A stretch of 17,850 nt of DNA from a virus (IMGVR_UViG_2654587568_000021), one strand, 5' to 3'. Counted from the first letter of the stretch, positions 4,087 through 13,948 are shown. Notes: generated by a model not told the origin, from the sequence alone. A program made the numbers and translations.

Positions 4087-4741
4087 CCGTCCAGAAGAAG
4101 ATATTTTCACTGGCTGGTATGTCACCAAAATCCAGCAATATGACAGCAAAGTCTGGCATTAATACAGCAGATACAAGCAAAGTTTATCATTTTCTGGTGG
4201 TAGGAGCGGATGCCTTAACTATGTCAGAAATTACGGTCGATGGTGTTAGCGTTGAGAAGGTCAGCGGCTGCGCCAGAGAATTTCTGGTCGTAGATGGCTT
4301 TCTCTGCTCGCGTAGTGACTCCACAAAAACCTTCGTCCATACGCGCGACGTTAACGAAATGAGCGCGATGTATTGTGCATCTGGTGCTTCCAATACTGAG
4401 TTTTCGGAGTCCATAAAAAAGAGCTTGCCGTTATGCGGCAACACGGTTTATGGTTATAAGGCACCTCATAAAACGGGTGCCGGGATTGGCGTCCTGAAAA
4501 TTCTGAAGGCGACATATGACGCGCCGAGCGTCTTTTTTTATGTCGTAGGTCTGACTCACCCATTTTTTGGGCGTTGGTGTATAATCCAGCGCCTTTGTCA
4601 ATCAATGGTGGCTCAGGCGGGGGCTTCTTCGGAAGCGCCGGTATCCTTCAGAGCCGGTTACGCCAACCCTGTCTGGGCTACCACCAGCGAAATTGGCGTT
4701 TCCGGTGGTAGCGTAACCTGCTATCTGAAGGAGGCTGCCAC
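4080..4741 (+). CDS. Uncertain ORF: frame stays open from an ATG at 4080 (overlapping the upstream stop) through to 5147, crossing a terminator-like hairpin, a promoter and the Icd-like gene; the part shown here may be a real gene, a fused or frameshifted remnant, or non-coding
   Basis: ATGCTAA start/stop overlap at 4080-4086 suggests coupling. An open frame of about 220 codons before the Icd-like start is unlikely by chance, but the translated composition is not convincing and regulatory signals lie inside it. Confidence 0.25.
4518..4539 (+). terminator. Candidate rho-independent terminator (GACGC-loop-GCGTC followed by T7)
   Basis: 5-bp GC-rich stem at 4518-4522 / 4528-4532, then TTTTTTT at 4533-4539. 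Confidence 0.35.
4550..4590 (+). promoter_or_regulatory. Candidate sigma70 promoter with perfect -10 TATAAT (4580-4585) preceded by TG; weak -35
   Basis: gtgTATAATcc at 4577-4587. Lies about 155 nt upstream of the Icd-like gene. Confidence 0.4.
4590..4735 (+). ncRNA. Candidate C4/IsrK-like antisense RNA leader upstream of the Icd-like gene (position-based hypothesis)
   Basis: In P1-type immunity regions a C4 RNA lies between the promoter and icd. Here a promoter-to-icd leader of about 150 nt occupies the same position. No structure or homology was verified. Confidence 0.25.
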
Positions 4742-6419: not shown

Positions 6420-9176
6420 ATGCGAAACATTGATCTTATCCGTCAGGTTATCAGTGCGTCTGAAAACAACTGGCCTCATGTGCTGGGCTGCCTGAACATA
6501 AATGTCCCTGACTCTCCGCGCCGTCATGCTCCCTGCCCTGCATGTGGGGGCAAAGATCGATTCCGGTTCGATGACAACGGGCGCGGTAGCTTCATCTGTA
6601 ATCAGTGCGGCGCTGGTGATGGGCTGGATTTAATTAAACGCGTAAATAACTGCGACACAACAGAGGCGGCGCTTCTTGCCGCTGATGTTCTGGGTATTGA
6701 TTACCGGACAACGGAAACACCAGAAGCCACCAGCCAGAAACGGGAACAACTGGAAACCGAGCGCCAGCGACGCGAACAGGAGCGCCTGAAAAGGGCAGAG
6801 AAGGACGAACAACAAAGACGGGATACGTTTTCCCGTCAGTTTGATGACATGCGCAGAAAGGCTGTAAACGGCAAATCTGATTATCTGGTTGCGAAAGGGG
6901 TAGGTGATTTTACATTCCCCGTGTTGCCCGATGGATCTCTGTTGCTGGCGCTGGTGGATAAATCCGGCGCAGTCACAGCAGCACAGACTATTACCTCACA
7001 TGGTGAAAAAAGACTCCTGACAGGTTCAGCAAAGCGAGGGGCATATCACGCCATAAACGCACCAGAAACAACACAGAGCATCTTAATCGCAGAAGGGCTG
7101 GCAACGGCATTATCTGCCCATTTAATTCGTTCAGAAGCGCTGACAGTGGCGGCGATTGATGCCGGGAACCTGTTATATGTCGCCCAGGTACTGCGGGATA
7201 AATTTCCTTCAGCACAAATCATCATTGCTGCGGATAACGACCACAGCGAAGGAAGACAAAACACGGGGAGAATAGCAGCAGAAAAAGCAGCTTTATCTGT
7301 TTCTGGATGGGTGGCATTACCCCCGACAGATCACAAAGCAGACTGGAATGATTACCACCAAAAACACGGCATTAAATGCGCCACAGAAGCGTTCAATAAG
7401 TCAATGTACCAACCACAGGGTAATGGCGTGAAACAGGAGCCACAGACCATTGAGGGAAGCGATTTTAAGGTTATGGATACCGACCCACTGAAACCAAGAA
7501 TAGAAAGCCGCGAGGATGGTATTTATTGGGTATCTCCGAGAGCTGACAGCCAGAGTGGAGAAATCATCAATAACGAAAGCTGGTTATGTTCTCCTTTAAG
7601 CGTTATCGGTACTGGCAGAGACGATAAAGACCAGTATCTCATTCTTCGCTGGCTGTCGTTTGGTTCTGAAACGCCGACAACCGCTGCCATTCCACTGGCT
7701 GATATTGGTGAACGTGAAGGATGGCGCACACTTAAAGCTGGTGGGGTAAATGTCACGACCAAAAGCAGCCTCAGAGCAATACTGGCAGACTGGCTACAAC
7801 GCAGTGGCTCTCGTGAATTGTGGCGTGTTGCTCATGCCACTGGCTGGCAATGCGGAGCGTACATCATGTCTGATGGGGAAATCATCGGAACACCTGAAAA
7901 TCCTGTGCTGTTCAGCGGGAGAAGCTCAGCCGCAGCCGGATATACCGTCTCAGGGAGCGCGAAAAGCTGGCGTGATAACGTGGCGCGTCTGGCCTTTGGT
8001 AACTATTCAATGATGACCGGGATCGGCGCAGCACTGGCAGCGCCATTGATTGGGCTGGTGGGCGCTGACGGGTTCGGTATTCATTTCTATGAGCAGTCGA
8101 GCGCAGGTAAGACCACCACGGCAAACGTGGCGAGCAGCTTATACGGCAACCCTGATTTACTGCGGCTGACGTGGTACGGAACCGCGCTGGGGCTGGCAAA
8201 TGAAGCCGCCGCCCACAATGACGGACTAATGCCGCTTGATGAAGTTGGTCAGGGCGCTGATCCTGTCAGTGTTTCACAGTCTGCCTATGCGTTATTTAAC
8301 GGTGTAGGGAAACTGCAAGGCGCTAAAGATGGTGGAAACCGGGATCTAAAACGCTGGCGTACAGTGGCAATCAGCACCGGAGAAATGGATTTAGAAACAT
8401 TTATCGCTACTTCCGGGCGAAAAACCAAAGCCGGGCAACTGGTGCGACTGCTGAATATTCCGTTGAGTAAAGCAGTACGCTTTCACGATTACCAGAACGG
8501 AAAACAGCACGCAGACGCACTGAAAGACGCTTACCAGCATCACCACGGCGCAGCCGGGCGTGAGTGGATTAAATGGCTGGCAGACCACCAGCAACAGGCT
8601 ATTAAAACTGTTCGTGACTGCGAAAGCAGATGGAGAAGCCTGATCCCATCCGATTATGGTGAGCAGGTTCACCGTGTAGCCGCGCGATTTGCCATTCTGG
8701 AGGCCGCATTGCTGTTAGGCGAGGTTGTAACAGGCTGGGATGCTCAGACATGCCGTGATGCGATACAGCACAGCTATAACGCATGGTTGCGCGAGTTCGG
8801 CACAGGTAACAAAGAGCATCAGCAGATTATTGAACAAACGGAGGCATTTCTTAATGCCTATGGGCTTAGCCGTTTTGCACCATTTCCATACAGCCCGGCA
8901 GATTTGCCCATCAAAGATTTAGCCGGATACCGTCAGCGTGGAGAACATGACGAAAGCCCAATGATTTTCTACACATTCCCGGCCACATTTGAAAAGGAGA
9001 TCGCATGTGGTTTCAACGCAAAACAGTTTGCTGAAGTGTTGAAAAAAGCCGGGATGCTAACCCCACCAAACAGCGGTCGTGGATACCAAAGAAAATCACC
9101 ACGTATTCAGGGACGACAAATAAACGTTTATGTACTCAATTACCAGCCAGGAGATTATAACTCATCCGAAGAATGA
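6420..9176 (+). CDS. P4 alpha-like DNA primase-helicase, 918 aa: N-terminal zinc ribbon, Toprim domain, C-terminal P-loop NTPase
   Basis: CPACGG...CNQCG zinc-binding motif. Toprim signatures IAEG and DNDH. Walker A SSAGKTTT and Walker B-like LMPLDEVGQG. Confidence 0.9.
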   Translation: MRNIDLIRQVISASENNWPHVLGCLNINVPDSPRRHAPCPACGGKDRFRFDDNGRGSFICNQCGAGDGLDLIKRVNNCDTTEAALLAADVLGIDYRTTETPEATSQKREQLETERQRREQERLKRAEKDEQQRRDTFSRQFDDMRRKAVNGKSDYLVAKGVGDFTFPVLPDGSLLLALVDKSGAVTAAQTITSHGEKRLLTGSAKRGAYHAINAPETTQSILIAEGLATALSAHLIRSEALTVAAIDAGNLLYVAQVLRDKFPSAQIIIAADNDHSEGRQNTGRIAAEKAALSVSGWVALPPTDHKADWNDYHQKHGIKCATEAFNKSMYQPQGNGVKQEPQTIEGSDFKVMDTDPLKPRIESREDGIYWVSPRADSQSGEIINNESWLCSPLSVIGTGRDDKDQYLILRWLSFGSETPTTAAIPLADIGEREGWRTLKAGGVNVTTKSSLRAILADWLQRSGSRELWRVAHATGWQCGAYIMSDGEIIGTPENPVLFSGRSSAAAGYTVSGSAKSWRDNVARLAFGNYSMMTGIGAALAAPLIGLVGADGFGIHFYEQSSAGKTTTANVASSLYGNPDLLRLTWYGTALGLANEAAAHNDGLMPLDEVGQGADPVSVSQSAYALFNGVGKLQGAKDGGNRDLKRWRTVAISTGEMDLETFIATSGRKTKAGQLVRLLNIPLSKAVRFHDYQNGKQHADALKDAYQHHHGAAGREWIKWLADHQQQAIKTVRDCESRWRSLIPSDYGEQVHRVAARFAILEAALLLGEVVTGWDAQTCRDAIQHSYNAWLREFGTGNKEHQQIIEQTEAFLNAYGLSRFAPFPYSPADLPIKDLAGYRQRGEHDESPMIFYTFPATFEKEIACGFNAKQFAEVLKKAGMLTPPNSGRGYQRKSPRIQGRQINVYVLNYQPGDYNSSEE

Positions 9177-9201
9177 GCTTCTTCATGTGCGTAGAAAAGG
9201 T

Positions 9202-9313
9202 GTTGGTTCAGTTGGTTCAGTTGGTTAAATTTGTAAAGAGTGTTGTTTTATAAGGATTTTATTCTTTTTATTGAACCAACACCGAACCAACAACACGGTA
9301 TTTTGAACCAACA
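9202..9313. repeat. Iteron cluster, candidate replication origin: three tandem GTTGGTTCA repeats, an AT-rich spacer, then three inverted TGAACCAAC copies
   Basis: Direct copies at 9202-9210, 9211-9219 and 9220-9228 (third degenerate). Inverted copies at 9272-9280, 9283-9291 and 9305-9313. Begins 26 bp after the primase stop. Confidence 0.6.
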
Positions 9314-9633
9314 CAATGTGACTGAATTGATGCGCACAACACCTGGCTGGCATCAGAGAGTGTTTTACGAGACTTTCGTAAAATCCTGTGTACAAGGGCG
9401 TGACGTTTTTGAAAGTGAGCACTACGAAATTTTCGTAGTTCAGAAAACAGCCCCTGAGAAGTTGTTATGCCTGTTCAGCAAACCATCCGCATAGCTGATC
9501 GCGAATCAAATTACCAATGGAGCCAGAAGCAAGGGCAGAACTGAAAAGCGCCTGCCGTGAAGAGTAATGCGACACCATAAATATAGTTTTTAGAGTCCAT
9601 AAAAAACCTGTCAAAACCTGACACACAGAACGA

Positions 9634-9665
9634 TGCTACCAGCTACTGAGCGGTGGCATTTTTTT
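9634..9665 (+). terminator. Candidate rho-independent terminator closing the int-primase gene block
   Basis: UGCUACC / GGUGGCA stem with one G-U wobble and an 11-nt loop, followed by T7 at 9659-9665. Confidence 0.35.
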
Positions 9666-9721
9666 GTGCTATTTGTTTCATATTTTGCAATCACAATGAT
9701 GAATGTTGCGTTTTATGAAAC

Positions 9722-9745
9722 TATAATGACTGTTGTTTTATACAG
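9722..9745 (+). promoter_or_regulatory. Perfect -10 hexamer TATAAT (9722-9727) immediately followed by a LexA-box-like motif CTGT-N8-ACAG (9730-9745); candidate SOS-regulated promoter of the cargo operon
   Basis: Sequence gaCTGTtgttttatACAGtt compared with the LexA consensus TACTGTATATATATACAGTA. AT-rich N8 spacer. The box sits between the -10 and the RBS at 9751. The -35 is weak. Confidence 0.45.
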
Positions 9746-9760
9746 TTCTAAGGGGGCGTT

Positions 9761-9934
9761 ATGGCTATTTCAGTAAAGCCAGTATTGATAAGTGAGAAGC
9801 AAATGGAAGCGATAAAGAAAATTCAGGAGGAGCAGCGTAAAAAATCAGAGGTAGGAGTTGCGCCAACGATCCACGAAATTGCTCGGGGATTAATGGATAA
9901 GGCGCTGGCTTACACTTTAACTGGACGTGGGTAA
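9761..9934 (+). CDS. Small hypothetical protein, 57 aa, first gene of the cargo operon (below the 60-aa ORF-track cutoff)
   Basis: RBS AGGGGG at 9751-9756, ATG at 9761, TAA at 9932-9934; translated by hand as MAISVKPVLISEKQMEAIKKIQEEQRKKSEVGVAPTIHEIARGLMDKALAYTLTGRG. Confidence 0.5.
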   Translation: MAISVKPVLISEKQMEAIKKIQEEQRKKSEVGVAPTIHEIARGLMDKALAYTLTGRG

Positions 9935-9938
9935 ATCA

Positions 9939-11405
9939 ATGGCTACGTGGCAACAGGGTATTAATTCTGGTGGTTTTCTGGCTGGCATTGGTGCGCAAAA
10001 CGAGAATGCGCCAAAGGCAAGCGACATTAACGCAACGCTTGGTCTGATCCGCGAAAACAATGAACTGGCTCGCTCAGGTGCAAATAACGTTGCTCTGACA
10101 GGTCTTCGTGGTCTGGCTGGCGTTGCTGATATTTATAAGCAGCAGCAACAGCAGGAGCGTAAAGCGGCATTCCAGAAAGGTTATGCAGATGCTTATGCGT
10201 CCGGTGACAGGGAGCAGATGCGTAATCTTATTACAGCATTCCCAGAAGAGTTTGAGGAAGTCCGTAAAGGGATGAGTTATGTCGATGATGCTCAAAGGGA
10301 TGATTATGGCAATCTGGCGCTCAAAGCACAGGTAGCCTCATCGCTTGGTCAGGGCGCATTTGGCAGGTTCATGATGGATAATGAGCAGGAGATGCGTCGT
10401 TTAGGTATCCCTCCAGAAACTATTGCTGAAATGCAGGTTAATGACCCGCAGGGCTTCCAGCATTTCGCAGGTAATCTGGCGCTGTTTTCTCTCGGTCATG
10501 AGAAGTATTTCGATATCAAAGATCAAATGGAAGGTCGGGATATTGAGCGTGGCAAGTTGGCAGAGACAATCCGCAGCAATCAGGCTGGCGAAGCACTTCA
10601 GGCGAGAGGGCAGGATATTAGCCGAGCAAATGCGTTAACGTCAGCATATGCACCAACAGCAGCAATGCAGAATTACAATCAGTACGCGCAAATGTTAAAG
10701 GCGGATCCAGAGGGGGCGGCGGCATTTGCGGCAGCGGCTGGAATTAATACAAACGCCAAAAAATTAATGAGTGTTAGAGAAAACGATGATGGCACTGTCA
10801 CAAAATACTACACAGACGGAAGTGAAGAGCAGGGAAAACTAAACCAGCCAATATCTGGAGATGGGTTTCGTCCAATAGCTTTGCCAACAGCCCAAAAGAT
10901 CATGGAAAAGTCGCCAGAAGGGGCTAAAAAAGCTGCTGGATTTGCATACAGGGTTAGGGATGCTCTTGATTCAATAGATACACTGAAAGACCAGCTTAGC
11001 CCACAGCGAGTGGCGATCATTAATAATGCTTTGGGTAATGGGACGCTGGCTAACTTAACGCTCAGCCCAGCAGAGCAGCAATACGTTGTTAATGCTAATG
11101 ACGCAATAATGGCAATACTCCGTCAGGAAACAGGGGCATCTATCCTACCAGCTGAAATGTCCAAATATTATCAAATGTATTTCCCTCAGCCTGGTGATTC
11201 CACAAAAACCATTGATACCAAGCGCCGGAAGATGGAAAACCAGTTCAATTCGCTGAAAGCTGCTTCTGGTCGAACTTATGATGCTTTGCGGGTTATTTCA
11301 GCAGTTGACAGAGGAACTGCTTCTTCGTCGCAGACATTGCCGCAATCTGAGCAGGTATCACAGCCAGCAGCCAGCAGTAACTTTTCTTCACTATGGGGTG
11401 ATTAA
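9939..11405 (+). CDS. Large hypothetical protein, about 488 aa, Ala/Gln/Gly-rich; no family recognised. An alternative GTG start at 9927 gives the 492-aa ORF-track version
   Basis: Long intact ORF with an ATG 4 nt after the upstream stop. Stop overlaps the next start (TAATG). Confidence 0.8.
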   Translation: MATWQQGINSGGFLAGIGAQNENAPKASDINATLGLIRENNELARSGANNVALTGLRGLAGVADIYKQQQQQERKAAFQKGYADAYASGDREQMRNLITAFPEEFEEVRKGMSYVDDAQRDDYGNLALKAQVASSLGQGAFGRFMMDNEQEMRRLGIPPETIAEMQVNDPQGFQHFAGNLALFSLGHEKYFDIKDQMEGRDIERGKLAETIRSNQAGEALQARGQDISRANALTSAYAPTAAMQNYNQYAQMLKADPEGAAAFAAAAGINTNAKKLMSVRENDDGTVTKYYTDGSEEQGKLNQPISGDGFRPIALPTAQKIMEKSPEGAKKAAGFAYRVRDALDSIDTLKDQLSPQRVAIINNALGNGTLANLTLSPAEQQYVVNANDAIMAILRQETGASILPAEMSKYYQMYFPQPGDSTKTIDTKRRKMENQFNSLKAASGRTYDALRVISAVDRGTASSSQTLPQSEQVSQPAASSNFSSLWGD

Positions 11406-13510
11406 TGGCTAAAGCATGGAAAGATGTTATCGCCTCTCCACAGTATCAGGCGTTAGCACCAGAACAAAAAGCGCAGGCTCAGGAGCAATACTTCAATGAA
11501 GTCGTGGCCCCGCAAGCCGGAGAAAGTGTAGAGCAGGCTAAGCAGGCTTTTTATGCTGCCTATCCACTACCATCAACGAATGAAATAGACCGATCCCAAT
11601 CAGCAACTCAAAATATTCAACATACATCATCTGATAATTCTCTTGCGTCAGGGTATGCAAAGTTAGCTACTCAGCAAAGAGAGGGGCTTGAGCGTTCAGC
11701 AGAACAGGGAGCCAGTCTTGGGGCTGCGATGCGCGATGCTATAACAGGCGAAAGCCGAATGACTCCAGAGATGGAGAGACTGCAAAATGTCGCCTCTGCC
11801 CCAGAATTGAACTCACTAAGCATGGATGCCCTAAAGGCTGGATGGTCTCAACTTTTCGGCTCTGACGCGTCTCAGGAAAAGATTCTTCAGGGAATGGGGG
11901 CGACATTAAGGCAGGATGAGAAGGGGAATACTATCGTTTCTCTGCCATCAGGTGATTATGCCCTGAACAAGCCGGGTTTATCACCGCAAGACCTGACCTC
12001 GTTTCTTGCTAATGCGTTGGCGTTTACACCAGCGGGCAGGGCTGGAACGGTGCTTGGTGCCATAGGAAAATCAGCAGCTACAGATTTAGCACTACAGGGA
12101 GCCACCAGCCTTGCTGGTGGAGAAGATATTGATCCGTTACAAACGGTAATTTCTGCTGGCATTGGTGGTATTGGTAAGGGGCTGGAAAATACAGCGAGTG
12201 CGGTTTCGAGGGCTGTTCGTGGTGATATGTCGCCTGAAGCAAAGGCTGCTGTCGACTTTGCATCGGAAAGAAATCTGCCGTTAATGACCAGTGACATGCT
12301 GAAAGATAAAACCTTTATGCAGAGTCAGGCTCAGACATTAGGCGAAAGAGTTCCTTTTTTTGGAACCGGTAAGAATCGGCTGAATCAACAACAAGCACGA
12401 GAAAATTTAGTCAGAACATTTAGCGATGGTCTGGGTGGCATTTCTGATAAACAGCTTTATGAATCTGCGACTAAAGGGCAACAAAAATTCATTGAGGCAG
12501 CAGGAAAGCGATATAACCGCATAATTGACGCTATGGGGGATACCCCTGTCGATCTCTCAAACACGGTAAAAGCTATCGACAATCAGATTGCCGTGTTAAG
12601 CCGCCCGGGCAAATCTCAGGATAGAGCCGCGGTAAAAGTCTTGCAGCAATTTAAAGACGATATCACCAGCGGACCAAATGACCTGCGTCTGGCGAGGGAA
12701 AACAGAACCGATCTTCGAAAGCGATTTATGGCGTCATCTGACACTGTTGATAAAGATACGCTCCAGAAAGCCAGCGATATTATCTACAAGGCATATACGG
12801 CGGATATGAAAAAAGCCGTAGCCAAAAATCTTGGAGCAGACGAAGCCATTAATATGGCAAGGGTTGATCGCTCATGGTCTAAATTCAATGACATGATGGG
12901 AAGAACGCGCGTTCAAAAGGCAATAGCCAGCGGCAAGGCCACGCCTGAGGATGTAACAAAACTCGTTTTTAGCCAAAGCCCATCAGAACGTTCTCAGCTT
13001 TACAGGCTTCTGGATGACAATGGTAGGCAAAACGCACGAGCAGCCATAGTTCAGAATGCTGTAGATAAGGCGACTGATCCGTCTGGAAATATCAGTGTTG
13101 AGAAGTTTATTAATGCGTTACACCGGAACAGGAAGCAATCAGCAACTTTCTTTAAAGGCGTACATGGAAAGGAACTGGACGGCGTTATTAAATACCTCAA
13201 CGATACAAGACACGCGGCAAAAGCGAACGTTCAAAACTTAAATGGTCAGCAGCTTTATGGATTGTTAGTTGGTGGTGGCATCATAAACGCAGCAGTATTA
13301 GCGGGGATGCTAAAAACGGCTGCGTTTGTTGTTCCTGCTGCTGGTGCCGTAGGCGGAGCAGCGAAGGCATACGAAAGCCCTGTTATACGAAATGCCTTGT
13401 TACGTCTGGCAAATACGCCAAAAGGTAGCACAGCATATGACAGAGCGATCAGTACGGTCACACAATCGCTCACCAGAGTCGCACAGGCATCACAAAAAGA
13501 AGCTCAATAA
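11405..13510 (+). CDS. Large hypothetical protein, 701 aa, with a C-terminal Gly/Ala-rich hydrophobic segment (LYGLLVGGGIINAAVLAGMLKTAAFVVPAAGAVGGAA); function unknown
   Basis: Long intact ORF coupled to the upstream gene and followed by a terminator hairpin. No enzymatic motif recognised. Confidence 0.85.
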   Translation: MAKAWKDVIASPQYQALAPEQKAQAQEQYFNEVVAPQAGESVEQAKQAFYAAYPLPSTNEIDRSQSATQNIQHTSSDNSLASGYAKLATQQREGLERSAEQGASLGAAMRDAITGESRMTPEMERLQNVASAPELNSLSMDALKAGWSQLFGSDASQEKILQGMGATLRQDEKGNTIVSLPSGDYALNKPGLSPQDLTSFLANALAFTPAGRAGTVLGAIGKSAATDLALQGATSLAGGEDIDPLQTVISAGIGGIGKGLENTASAVSRAVRGDMSPEAKAAVDFASERNLPLMTSDMLKDKTFMQSQAQTLGERVPFFGTGKNRLNQQQARENLVRTFSDGLGGISDKQLYESATKGQQKFIEAAGKRYNRIIDAMGDTPVDLSNTVKAIDNQIAVLSRPGKSQDRAAVKVLQQFKDDITSGPNDLRLARENRTDLRKRFMASSDTVDKDTLQKASDIIYKAYTADMKKAVAKNLGADEAINMARVDRSWSKFNDMMGRTRVQKAIASGKATPEDVTKLVFSQSPSERSQLYRLLDDNGRQNARAAIVQNAVDKATDPSGNISVEKFINALHRNRKQSATFFKGVHGKELDGVIKYLNDTRHAAKANVQNLNGQQLYGLLVGGGIINAAVLAGMLKTAAFVVPAAGAVGGAAKAYESPVIRNALLRLANTPKGSTAYDRAISTVTQSLTRVAQASQKEAQ

Positions 13511-13514
13511 CTGG

Positions 13515-13537
13515 TTAGCCATGGATGGCTAATTTTT
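13515..13537 (+). terminator. Rho-independent terminator of the cargo operon
   Basis: Stem TTAGCCA / TGGCTAA with loop TGGA, then TTTTT. The stop codon of the convergent - strand gene (13529-13531) lies inside the 3' arm. Confidence 0.5.
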
Positions 13538-13948
13538 GTTCTTTGCTCTCATCCATAGGTAAAGAAGGGAAAGAACAAGGCAAAAAACAGAGAATAGATA
13601 ACCTACCTCATATGGTGCGCCAAAAAAATTAGCTATTGATACGGGCAAAAAAGCTGAGGCGATCAAAATTGAAAGGCAAAAAATAAGCCCAGTAATATAG
13701 TTTATTAAATTCTTAAATGAGAAACGTTTTGCTTGATTTACGGTCTTAACGAACGATCGCTTAACGACGGATAAAAGCAAATAGATGGCGACAGTTGCTA
13801 ATGCCCCTTTCCACCAGTCTGGATATAGTTTTGCGACAATCAGACCAAGGAAAACCATGATGACAGCCTGAGCATTCACACCAACCCTCCCTTTAGCTTT
13901 GTTTAGAATGGCAATCATCATATATCCAAGACATGGCATTTGGTACAT
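13529..13948 (-). CDS. Small integral membrane protein, 139 aa, about 4 predicted TM helices, AT-rich, convergent with the 701-aa gene
   Basis: Four hydrophobic stretches of 15-25 residues read by eye. One 60-nt sample (13621-13680) is about 37% GC, below the roughly 50% flank. No clear SD, so the start codon is uncertain. Confidence 0.6.
   Translation of the reverse strand: MYQMPCLGYMMIAILNKAKGRVGVNAQAVIMVFLGLIVAKLYPDWWKGALATVAIYLLLSVVKRSFVKTVNQAKRFSFKNLINYITGLIFCLSILIASAFLPVSIANFFGAPYEVGYLFSVFCLVLSLLYLWMRAKNKN

Follow-up and report, generated by a model that had tools for sequence, protein, structure and literature searches.

A probable LexA operator on the promoter of an ejection-protein operon in an Escherichia coli chromosomal island

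We report that the promoter of a three-gene operon in an Escherichia coli chromosomal island very probably carries a real LexA operator. The candidate site occupies positions 9728-9747 of the window, i.e. the whole 17,850-nucleotide stretch of DNA analysed here (IMGVR_UViG_2654587568_000021), and the operon encodes a small conserved protein followed by two proteins resembling the ejection proteins of phage P22. The match to the LexA motif, its rarity, its position on the promoter, the structure of the operon and the conservation of the site in several genera are matters of direct observation. Judging from the sequence, we would expect with considerable confidence that LexA binds the site in vitro, and we think it likely, if somewhat less assured, that the operon is under real SOS control through this box.

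Results

The island and its probable origin

The window is an E. coli chromosomal island whose best match, at 99.2% identity, is in strain MS1494 (NZ_CP097724.1), where it adjoins tRNA-Thr downstream of proA. The island region is present in 503 of 5426 complete E. coli genomes (~9%), and the exact promoter with its box (TATAATRACTGTTGTTTTATACAGTT) is also found in 10 IMG/VR viral or proviral contigs, the one hint that a helper may mobilise the island. The gene order starts with a tyrosine integrase and continues with an alpA-like HTH gene, an AntA/B antirepressor, DUF4222, Ash, an Icd-like gene and small ORFs, up to a primase of 918 aa with TOPRIM and DUF927 domains (P4 alpha-type), whose gene stops at 9176. 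Rfam identified an int-alpA RNA (1276-1343), isrK (4461-4538) and the C4 antisense RNA (4601-4688), a set typical of P4-like elements. Just after the primase gene lie iterons (9199-9314), with GTTGGTTCA in three direct repeats (9202-9234) and TGAACCAAC three times in inverted arrangement (9271-9314), which are probably the island's origin. They are followed, in order, by a terminator, a TATAAT hexamer with the box, a Shine-Dalgarno sequence and the three genes of the operon.

Two further observations concern the island at large. A pair of 15-nt palindromes, TACGAGACTTTCGTA and TACGAAATTTTCGTA, lies at 9366-9380 and 9423-9437, 57 bp apart. Between the integrase and the alpA-like HTH gene there is a 293-aa DUF6387 gene (1358-2239), which is absent from the otherwise 99%-identical MS1494 island; the same slot holds a 321-aa gene in strain B4103-1 and a 255-aa gene in an island at tRNA-Gly, and it looks like a variable cargo position.

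Sequence and score of the LexA box

To score candidate operators we rebuilt a heterology index (HI) from the 18 E. coli LexA operators in the motif table of PMC3009722. HI is a Lewis-type sum over positions of ln[(n_consensus + 0.5)/(n_observed + 0.5)], and its matrix is an 18-site reconstruction distinct from the original matrix of Lewis et al. 1994. The features of the promoter and operon are as follows.

9631-9667, + strand: intrinsic terminator (hairpin and U-run), a terminator-like site with a stable fold
9676-9690, + strand: distal palindrome-like element TTTCA-N5-TGCAA, candidate operator of a second, non-LexA regulator
9699-9704, + strand: weak -35-like hexamer ATGAAT, 17-bp spacer to the -10, 3/6 consensus matches
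9706-9720, + strand: proximal palindrome-like element TTGCG-N5-TGAAA, ending 1 nt before the -10 and 30 bp from the distal copy
9722-9727, + strand: perfect -10 hexamer TATAAT, read from the sequence and conserved
9728-9747, no strand assigned: candidate LexA (SOS) box GACTGTTGTTTTATACAGTT, core CTGT-N8-ACAG at 9730-9745, HI 6.24
9750-9756, + strand: Shine-Dalgarno AAGGGGG serving the small ORF; a G-rich block precedes the ATG in all relatives
9761-9934, + strand: 57-aa conserved leader gene (WP_001018522.1) with homologues in Enterobacterales
9939-11405, + strand: P22 gp20-like ejection protein (Inj_translocase); PF16928 at 1.4e-83, phrog_917 over its full length at 3e-142
11405-13510, + strand: P22 gp16-like DNA transfer/injection protein; phrog_770 over its full length at 2.4e-163
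13513-13544, + strand: terminator-like hairpin and T-run closing the operon

The original prediction was of a TATAAT hexamer followed 2 bp later by CTGT-N8-ACAG, and both elements are present: TATAAT (9722-9727), GA (9728-9729), CTGT (9730-9733), TGTTTTAT (9734-9741) and ACAG (9742-9745). The resulting 16-bp core, CTGTTGTTTTATACAG at 9730-9745, fits CTGT-N8-ACAG (CTG-N10-CAG) with an AT-rich spacer. Motifs of the CTGT-N8-ACAG type are the established target of E. coli LexA (PMC6590174), and the island sits in E. coli chromosomes, i.e. in a host with a LexA of matching specificity.

By score, the 20-mer falls among the proven LexA operators of E. coli. Its HI of 6.24, obtained in the better orientation (reverse strand, AACTGTATAAAACAACAGTC), is in the middle of the 0.6-12.6 spanned by the 18 known operators under leave-one-out; with a symmetrised matrix it reaches 9.16, against 1.8-12.2 for the known sites, and ranks among the weaker operators. 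By score, the predicted operator is middling to weak-middling. In PSOSP, E. coli K-12 boxes form a low-HI mode at ~7.3, which predicts binding, and a high-HI mode at ~22 (PMC12527982); these modes come from PSOSP's own matrix and their comparison with our HI is approximate only. No LexA-type site in the window scores better than 9728-9747, the second being at 1214-1233 (HI 6.28).

How rare is such a site? The initial estimate that a bare CTGT-N8-ACAG should occur by chance roughly 0.3 times in the window was about right, since shuffles give 0.20 per window. The window has two such matches (1216-1231 and 9730-9745), and two or more were found in 4 of 200 dinucleotide-preserving shuffles. This estimate stands for the minimal pattern but not for the full 20-mer, which is much rarer than had been assumed: a first-order Markov model predicts 0.0045 sites with HI <= 6.3 per 17.85 kb, and 0.00015 for the 584-bp intergenic stretch. 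As a real-sequence background we took 285 kb, made of the window and 26 related loci. Sites with HI <= 10 in these sequences were the promoter box (13 loci), a homologous site internal to the gp20 gene (4 loci) and the 1214-1233 box; outside these three groups, the 285 kb held no stray site at this threshold.

The candidate box resembles chromosomal E. coli SOS boxes. Its reverse strand, AACTGTATAAAACAACAGTC, is similar to the boxes of yebG (TACTGTATAAAATCACAGTT) and polB (GACTGTATAAAACCACAGCC) and is also near that of uvrB; with these sites it shares the CTG-N10-CAG palindrome, the AT-rich spacer, the HI range and the overlap with the core promoter and start. It differs from them in lying on a mobile satellite-type island, outside the core SOS regulon, and in preceding phage ejection-protein genes instead of repair genes; its control is a prediction. 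A 12-mer comprising the end of the left arm and the spacer of the box (TGTTGTTTTATA, 9731-9742) is repeated exactly at 9241-9252, in the origin region 490 bp upstream (rough chance ~0.01 per 600-nt stretch).

An insulated promoter with a weak -35

A scan of 9100-10000 for sigma-70 consensus promoters called none, because the best -35 is weak (ATGAAT, 3/6). We nevertheless kept the promoter reading because the -10 is perfect and conserved. Counting from this -10, transcription is predicted to start at ~9734 (range 9732-9736), which places the box at roughly -6 to +14. In genes that depend tightly on LexA, the boxes are reported to lie over the transcription start (PMC8072944). The sequence agrees with the SOS-repression layout that had been proposed: the box directly follows the -10 and covers the predicted start of a transcription unit that is insulated.

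The insulation comes from both sides. The fold of 9625-9672 has an energy of -20.9 kcal/mol (z -4.86) and none of 200 shuffles was as stable; the terminator at 9631-9667 shields the promoter from transcription coming from the primase and the origin. With this terminator upstream, tightly packed genes and a hairpin downstream, the promoter bearing the box is the only evident source of transcription of the operon. Yet, the weak -35 means that an activator may be needed, so that removal of LexA might not suffice for expression. Together with the two conserved palindromes on the promoter, it also makes it probable that LexA is not the sole regulator.

A terminator at this place also implies that the stretch from the origin to the promoter gives rise to a short transcript that is not annotated. 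Candidates for such a transcript in 9440-9667 are a small RNA or a 25-codon ORF (9467-9544); Rfam at the gathering threshold gave no match in 9440-9667.

An operon that matches P22-like phages in part

The three genes are tightly packed, the start of the gp16-like gene overlapping the stop of the gp20-like gene, and the former carries the annotation 'injection protein' in the MS1494 record. The gp20/gp16 part has 88-92% nucleotide identity to parts of P22-like phage genes, including gene 20. A megablast search against phages matched nothing upstream of the gp20-like gene, and tblastn of the 57-aa protein against 50,697 phage records gave no hit; a phage origin of the promoter and small gene was rejected on these empty searches. 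Homologues of the 57-aa protein are found in other Enterobacterales at 56-80% identity. The protein has 20 invariant residues and a predicted structure with an extended N-terminus and two helices. It has no detectable similarity to any family, and none in sequence or fold to ribbon-helix-helix families; a DNA-binding role of the ribbon-helix-helix kind is a guess from the sequence pattern only.

The gp20-like gene itself contains a third LexA-like site, TGCTGGATTTGCATACAGGG at 10934-10953 (HI 8.0), identical in MS1494, in B4103-1 and in a further related locus (L012); sites with HI <= 8.5 are expected 0.018 times per window. Phage records gave no match to this stretch.

A second LexA-type box

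The second-best site lies at the integrase end.

1214-1233, no strand assigned: second LexA-type box AACTGTATGAATAGACAGTG, HI 6.28, on the integrase stop codon

Part of this box coincides with the -35 of TAGACA-17-TAGACT (1225-1253), a promoter-like match reading toward the int-alpA RNA and the DUF6387 and alpA-like genes. The island at tRNA-Gly, which is ~70% identical to ours, has a counterpart in the same place (GACTGGTTGAGTATACAGTA, HI 6.41); the equivalent site is weaker in MS1494 (HI 11.3) and there is none in B4103-1. The early operon of the island may also be SOS-controlled.

Conservation of the promoter and of the box

Starting from homologues of the 57-aa protein we gathered 23 further loci, all of which have a DUF927 primase upstream of the small gene and the same promoter layout before it. 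The promoter alignment comprises 21 promoters, 19 of which have TATAAT (those of Pantoea coffeiphila and Pectobacterium differ); the -10 of Klebsiella I138 is TATACT. Full LexA boxes, all at the same place after the -10, are found in Serratia nevei/marcescens (TACTGTGTCTATATACAGTT, HI 4.2), in P. coffeiphila (AGCTGTATAAATAAACAGGG, HI 7.5) and in Erwinia persicina, Pantoea sp. 1.19 and Lonsdalea (TACTGTATAAAATAACAGGA, HI 5.7, with one variant at 9.1). The full box occurs in three separate clades of the small-protein tree, and the lineages that have it keep CTGT and ACAG around spacers quite unlike that of E. coli.

Not every measure of this conservation is informative. Invariance within E. coli was discarded as evidence, since the copies are 93-100% identical and give no statistical power. 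The statistic that all eight invariant columns coincide with the LexA core was also rejected, since it is circular: the lineages had been picked by HI. Instead, we compared the promoters of E. coli and Serratia in a pairwise divergence test: the two are identical at all 8 core positions and differ at 35 of the 79 others (Fisher one-sided p = 0.013).

Many relatives have a shorter version of the motif, CTG-N9-CAG, one base short of the LexA register, in the context TATAAT-NN-CTGTATAAATAT-CAGG(A/G)GG (HI 12.7-17.4). It is carried by Klebsiella, Raoultella, Rahnella, Chimaeribacter, Serratia silvae, an Erwinia MAG and two Pantoea; Pantoea septica is among the lineages whose right half-site is shifted by 1 bp or mutated. 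One of two histories applies: a LexA box has decayed here, or this is the ancestral form that a 1-bp insertion turns into a box. The variant lies ~30 nt upstream of the small gene, and its CAG also serves in the Shine-Dalgarno sequence. In Leclercia both arms are mutated (HI 13.4), and Pectobacterium has no recognisable box (HI 17.8). Most lineages without a full box retain the left CTGTAT, hence part of the motif is kept for a reason other than LexA; this retention must have another cause, such as a different factor or the context of the start site. With a right arm that is degenerate in many lineages, LexA control is a lineage-variable layer on a conserved promoter.

A possible second regulator and alternative readings of the box

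Two TTTCA-N5-TGAAA-like palindromes, 30 bp apart, are kept in every lineage, whether or not it has a LexA box (21 promoters). The TTTCAT of the distal element is invariant in the 21 promoters, from at least 13 genera, and the proximal element is kept as TTTCA-N5-TG(A/C)AA in all lineages. In several relatives, e.g. Serratia (tttcattaaatgaaa), the palindrome is perfect. Placed over the -35 and the spacer, this pair suggests a second regulator acting on the same promoter, possibly the operon's own 57-aa protein. As operators of a conserved island protein, these elements would be better candidates than the LexA box.

These elements bear on what the box does. LexA might bind it to little effect, another regulator at TTTCA-N5-TGAAA governing the promoter (the small protein, a different product of the island, or one of a helper phage) and the box being a dispensable lineage-specific add-on or a relic. 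The palindromes, the -10 and the left CTGTAT are indeed spread over all lineages, while the full LexA box is found in three clades only; the -35 is weak; and induction of alpA in the island EcCICFT073 needs a helper phage and not SOS (PMC6092414). But lineages with the box preserve its eight critical bases against a divergence of ~44% in spacer and flanks, which argues for selection on LexA recognition, and a box over +1, directly after the -10, is placed to repress whatever else acts on the promoter. We consider this possibility unlikely.

The palindrome might instead be the operator of another protein, either the 57-aa product or a helper-phage repressor, and be LexA-like by resemblance. The left arm and the AT-rich stretch (CTGTATAAATAT) are kept where the LexA register is broken, and the small protein, itself conserved, could be a DNA-binding protein. 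Yet, the match is not limited to CTGT and ACAG but includes the A and T next to them in the LexA consensus (ACTGT...ACAGT). The candidate DNA-facing residues of the small protein are invariant whereas the right arm is variable, and a cognate operator should be kept everywhere, as the TTTCA-N5-TGAAA elements are. We also know of no P22-type operator that can be recognised in the box. The resemblance hypothesis thus seems quite improbable. Finally, a chance match or a 5'-leader RNA hairpin devoid of any protein-binding role deserves hardly any credence: a bare CTGT-N8-ACAG is expected 0.2 times per window and the arms can pair as a 6-bp stem, but a full site of this score is expected 0.0045 times, the 285 kb have no stray sites, the site is conserved across genera, its fold (-5.3 kcal/mol, z -0.06) is no better than that of shuffles (83 of 200 as stable), and the left arm is at or upstream of the predicted start.

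Variable cargo behind the small gene

The genes behind the small gene change from one island to another, and are always genes for proteins that leave the virion with the DNA. The variable cargo has these coordinates in the related loci.

L002 (B4103-1): 7380-11748
L004: 6180-10357
L006: 6177-8602
L008: 6177-9665
L010: 6247-8064
L013-L026: downstream of ~4150

The island of E. coli B4103-1 has a full P22-type set, with gp14-like (DUF2824, phrog_651), gp7-like (phrog_598), gp20 and gp16 genes. Serratia has gp20 and a gp16 with an SLT domain. SLT-domain proteins of 670-890 aa are found in Klebsiella and Leclercia, with a Dit-like protein in Klebsiella, while Erwinia, Pantoea and Chimaeribacter encode a 108-aa protein and tape-measure proteins of ~860-1190 aa. 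Compared with B4103-1 (L002, 7350-8512), the window island is without the gp14-like and gp7-like genes. Similarity between the two ends at ~9909, inside the 3' end of the small gene, with the gp20-like gene directly next, and the break alters the C-terminus of the small protein (YTLTGRG). E. coli genomes commonly carry either form, with or without these two phage-type genes (gp14-like, gp7-like).

This pattern suggests that satellites bring along genome-delivery proteins of their own that fit the type of helper. More tentatively, and with a confidence that falls somewhat short of even, we propose that Enterobacterales satellites with a P4-type primase share a slot, made of a post-origin promoter and a small-protein gene, in which helper-matched delivery genes can be swapped and which is LexA-wired in several lineages, including this island. 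The slot would hold P22 gp14/gp7/gp20/gp16, SLT-domain injection proteins or tape-measure proteins.

Discussion

The prediction of a LexA box at this promoter gains computational support from its HI score, its rarity, its position on an insulated unit and the retention of its critical bases in some other genera. These data are consistent with the following scenario. In the undamaged cell, LexA would sit on the box as a dimer and obstruct RNA polymerase. Once DNA is damaged, LexA would cleave itself under stimulation by RecA and so release the operon promoter, and the ejection-protein genes would be expressed when SOS also induces resident helper prophages. The proposal includes a link between the island operon and a P22-like helper. 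The ejection proteins of P22 go into procapsids, and incorporation of the island's proteins into virions would need early co-expression with such a helper.

The closest system-level precedent for a satellite operon with a LexA box is operon I of the SaPIs, a packaging and interference module placed after the SaPI ori and under LexA control, according to Ubeda et al. (2007) as relayed in PMC5052747. Going by that account, SaPIs and the window share the order int, regulators, primase and replication genes, origin, and a rightward operon of helper-related genes; in the window, integrase, regulator, primase and probable origin are followed by the co-oriented operon at 9761-13510. Yet, SaPIs have a Gram-positive host, another LexA motif and no sequence homology to the window island, where LexA control is a prediction. 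Their cargo is terS, cpmAB and pti (packaging, capsid sizing, interference) whereas that of the window consists of P22-type ejection proteins, and the window operon has no small terminase, capsid-size or interference protein of the kind that marks SaPI operon I. The window operon is thus analogous in logic to SaPI operon I, and not a member of that class.

Prophages of enterobacteria also have genes under LexA control, such as tum of coliphage 186, the Gifsy-type antirepressors and antC of N15. The operon studied here would share with them a LexA box on a short first gene and a tie to SOS without a cleavable phage repressor. The difference is in what follows, since the 57-aa gene precedes genes for virion proteins and not a lysis-lysogeny switch.

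Among Gram-negative islands, the E. coli PICI EcCICFT073 makes a contrast. It is mobilised by phage and has, like the window island, int and an alpA-type regulator followed by a primase/replication backbone, but its alpA induction is helper-phage-dependent and SOS-independent (PMC6092414). The window island, unlike EcCICFT073, has LexA-type boxes at the int-alpA region and at the cargo operon, and is without a recognisable packaging-redirection gene. Direct SOS wiring, if true, would depart from the Gram-negative island pattern. Full-text searches for literature on this locus, or on satellites with ejection or tape-measure genes, found nothing relevant, and literature searches turned up no EMSA, ChIP or expression results on the locus. 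The operator itself is an ordinary gammaproteobacterial SOS box; it is its setting, an ejection-protein operon in a satellite, that we did not find described.

If LexA control is true, an island present in ~9% of complete E. coli genomes senses DNA damage directly and not only via its helper. SOS-inducing antibiotics such as quinolones would then switch on phage ejection-protein genes, the alpA/replication operon would possibly also be switched on via the second box, and the SaPI rule of a LexA-controlled late operon would extend to Gram-negative satellites. If the shared slot is true, it would be a Gram-negative functional counterpart of SaPI operon I, with which a satellite could re-equip helper virions, e.g. 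to enter cells that exclude the helper, or poison them. These results point to an undescribed class of satellite cargo, the genome-delivery proteins, with possible roles in transfer, host range and interference with the helper.
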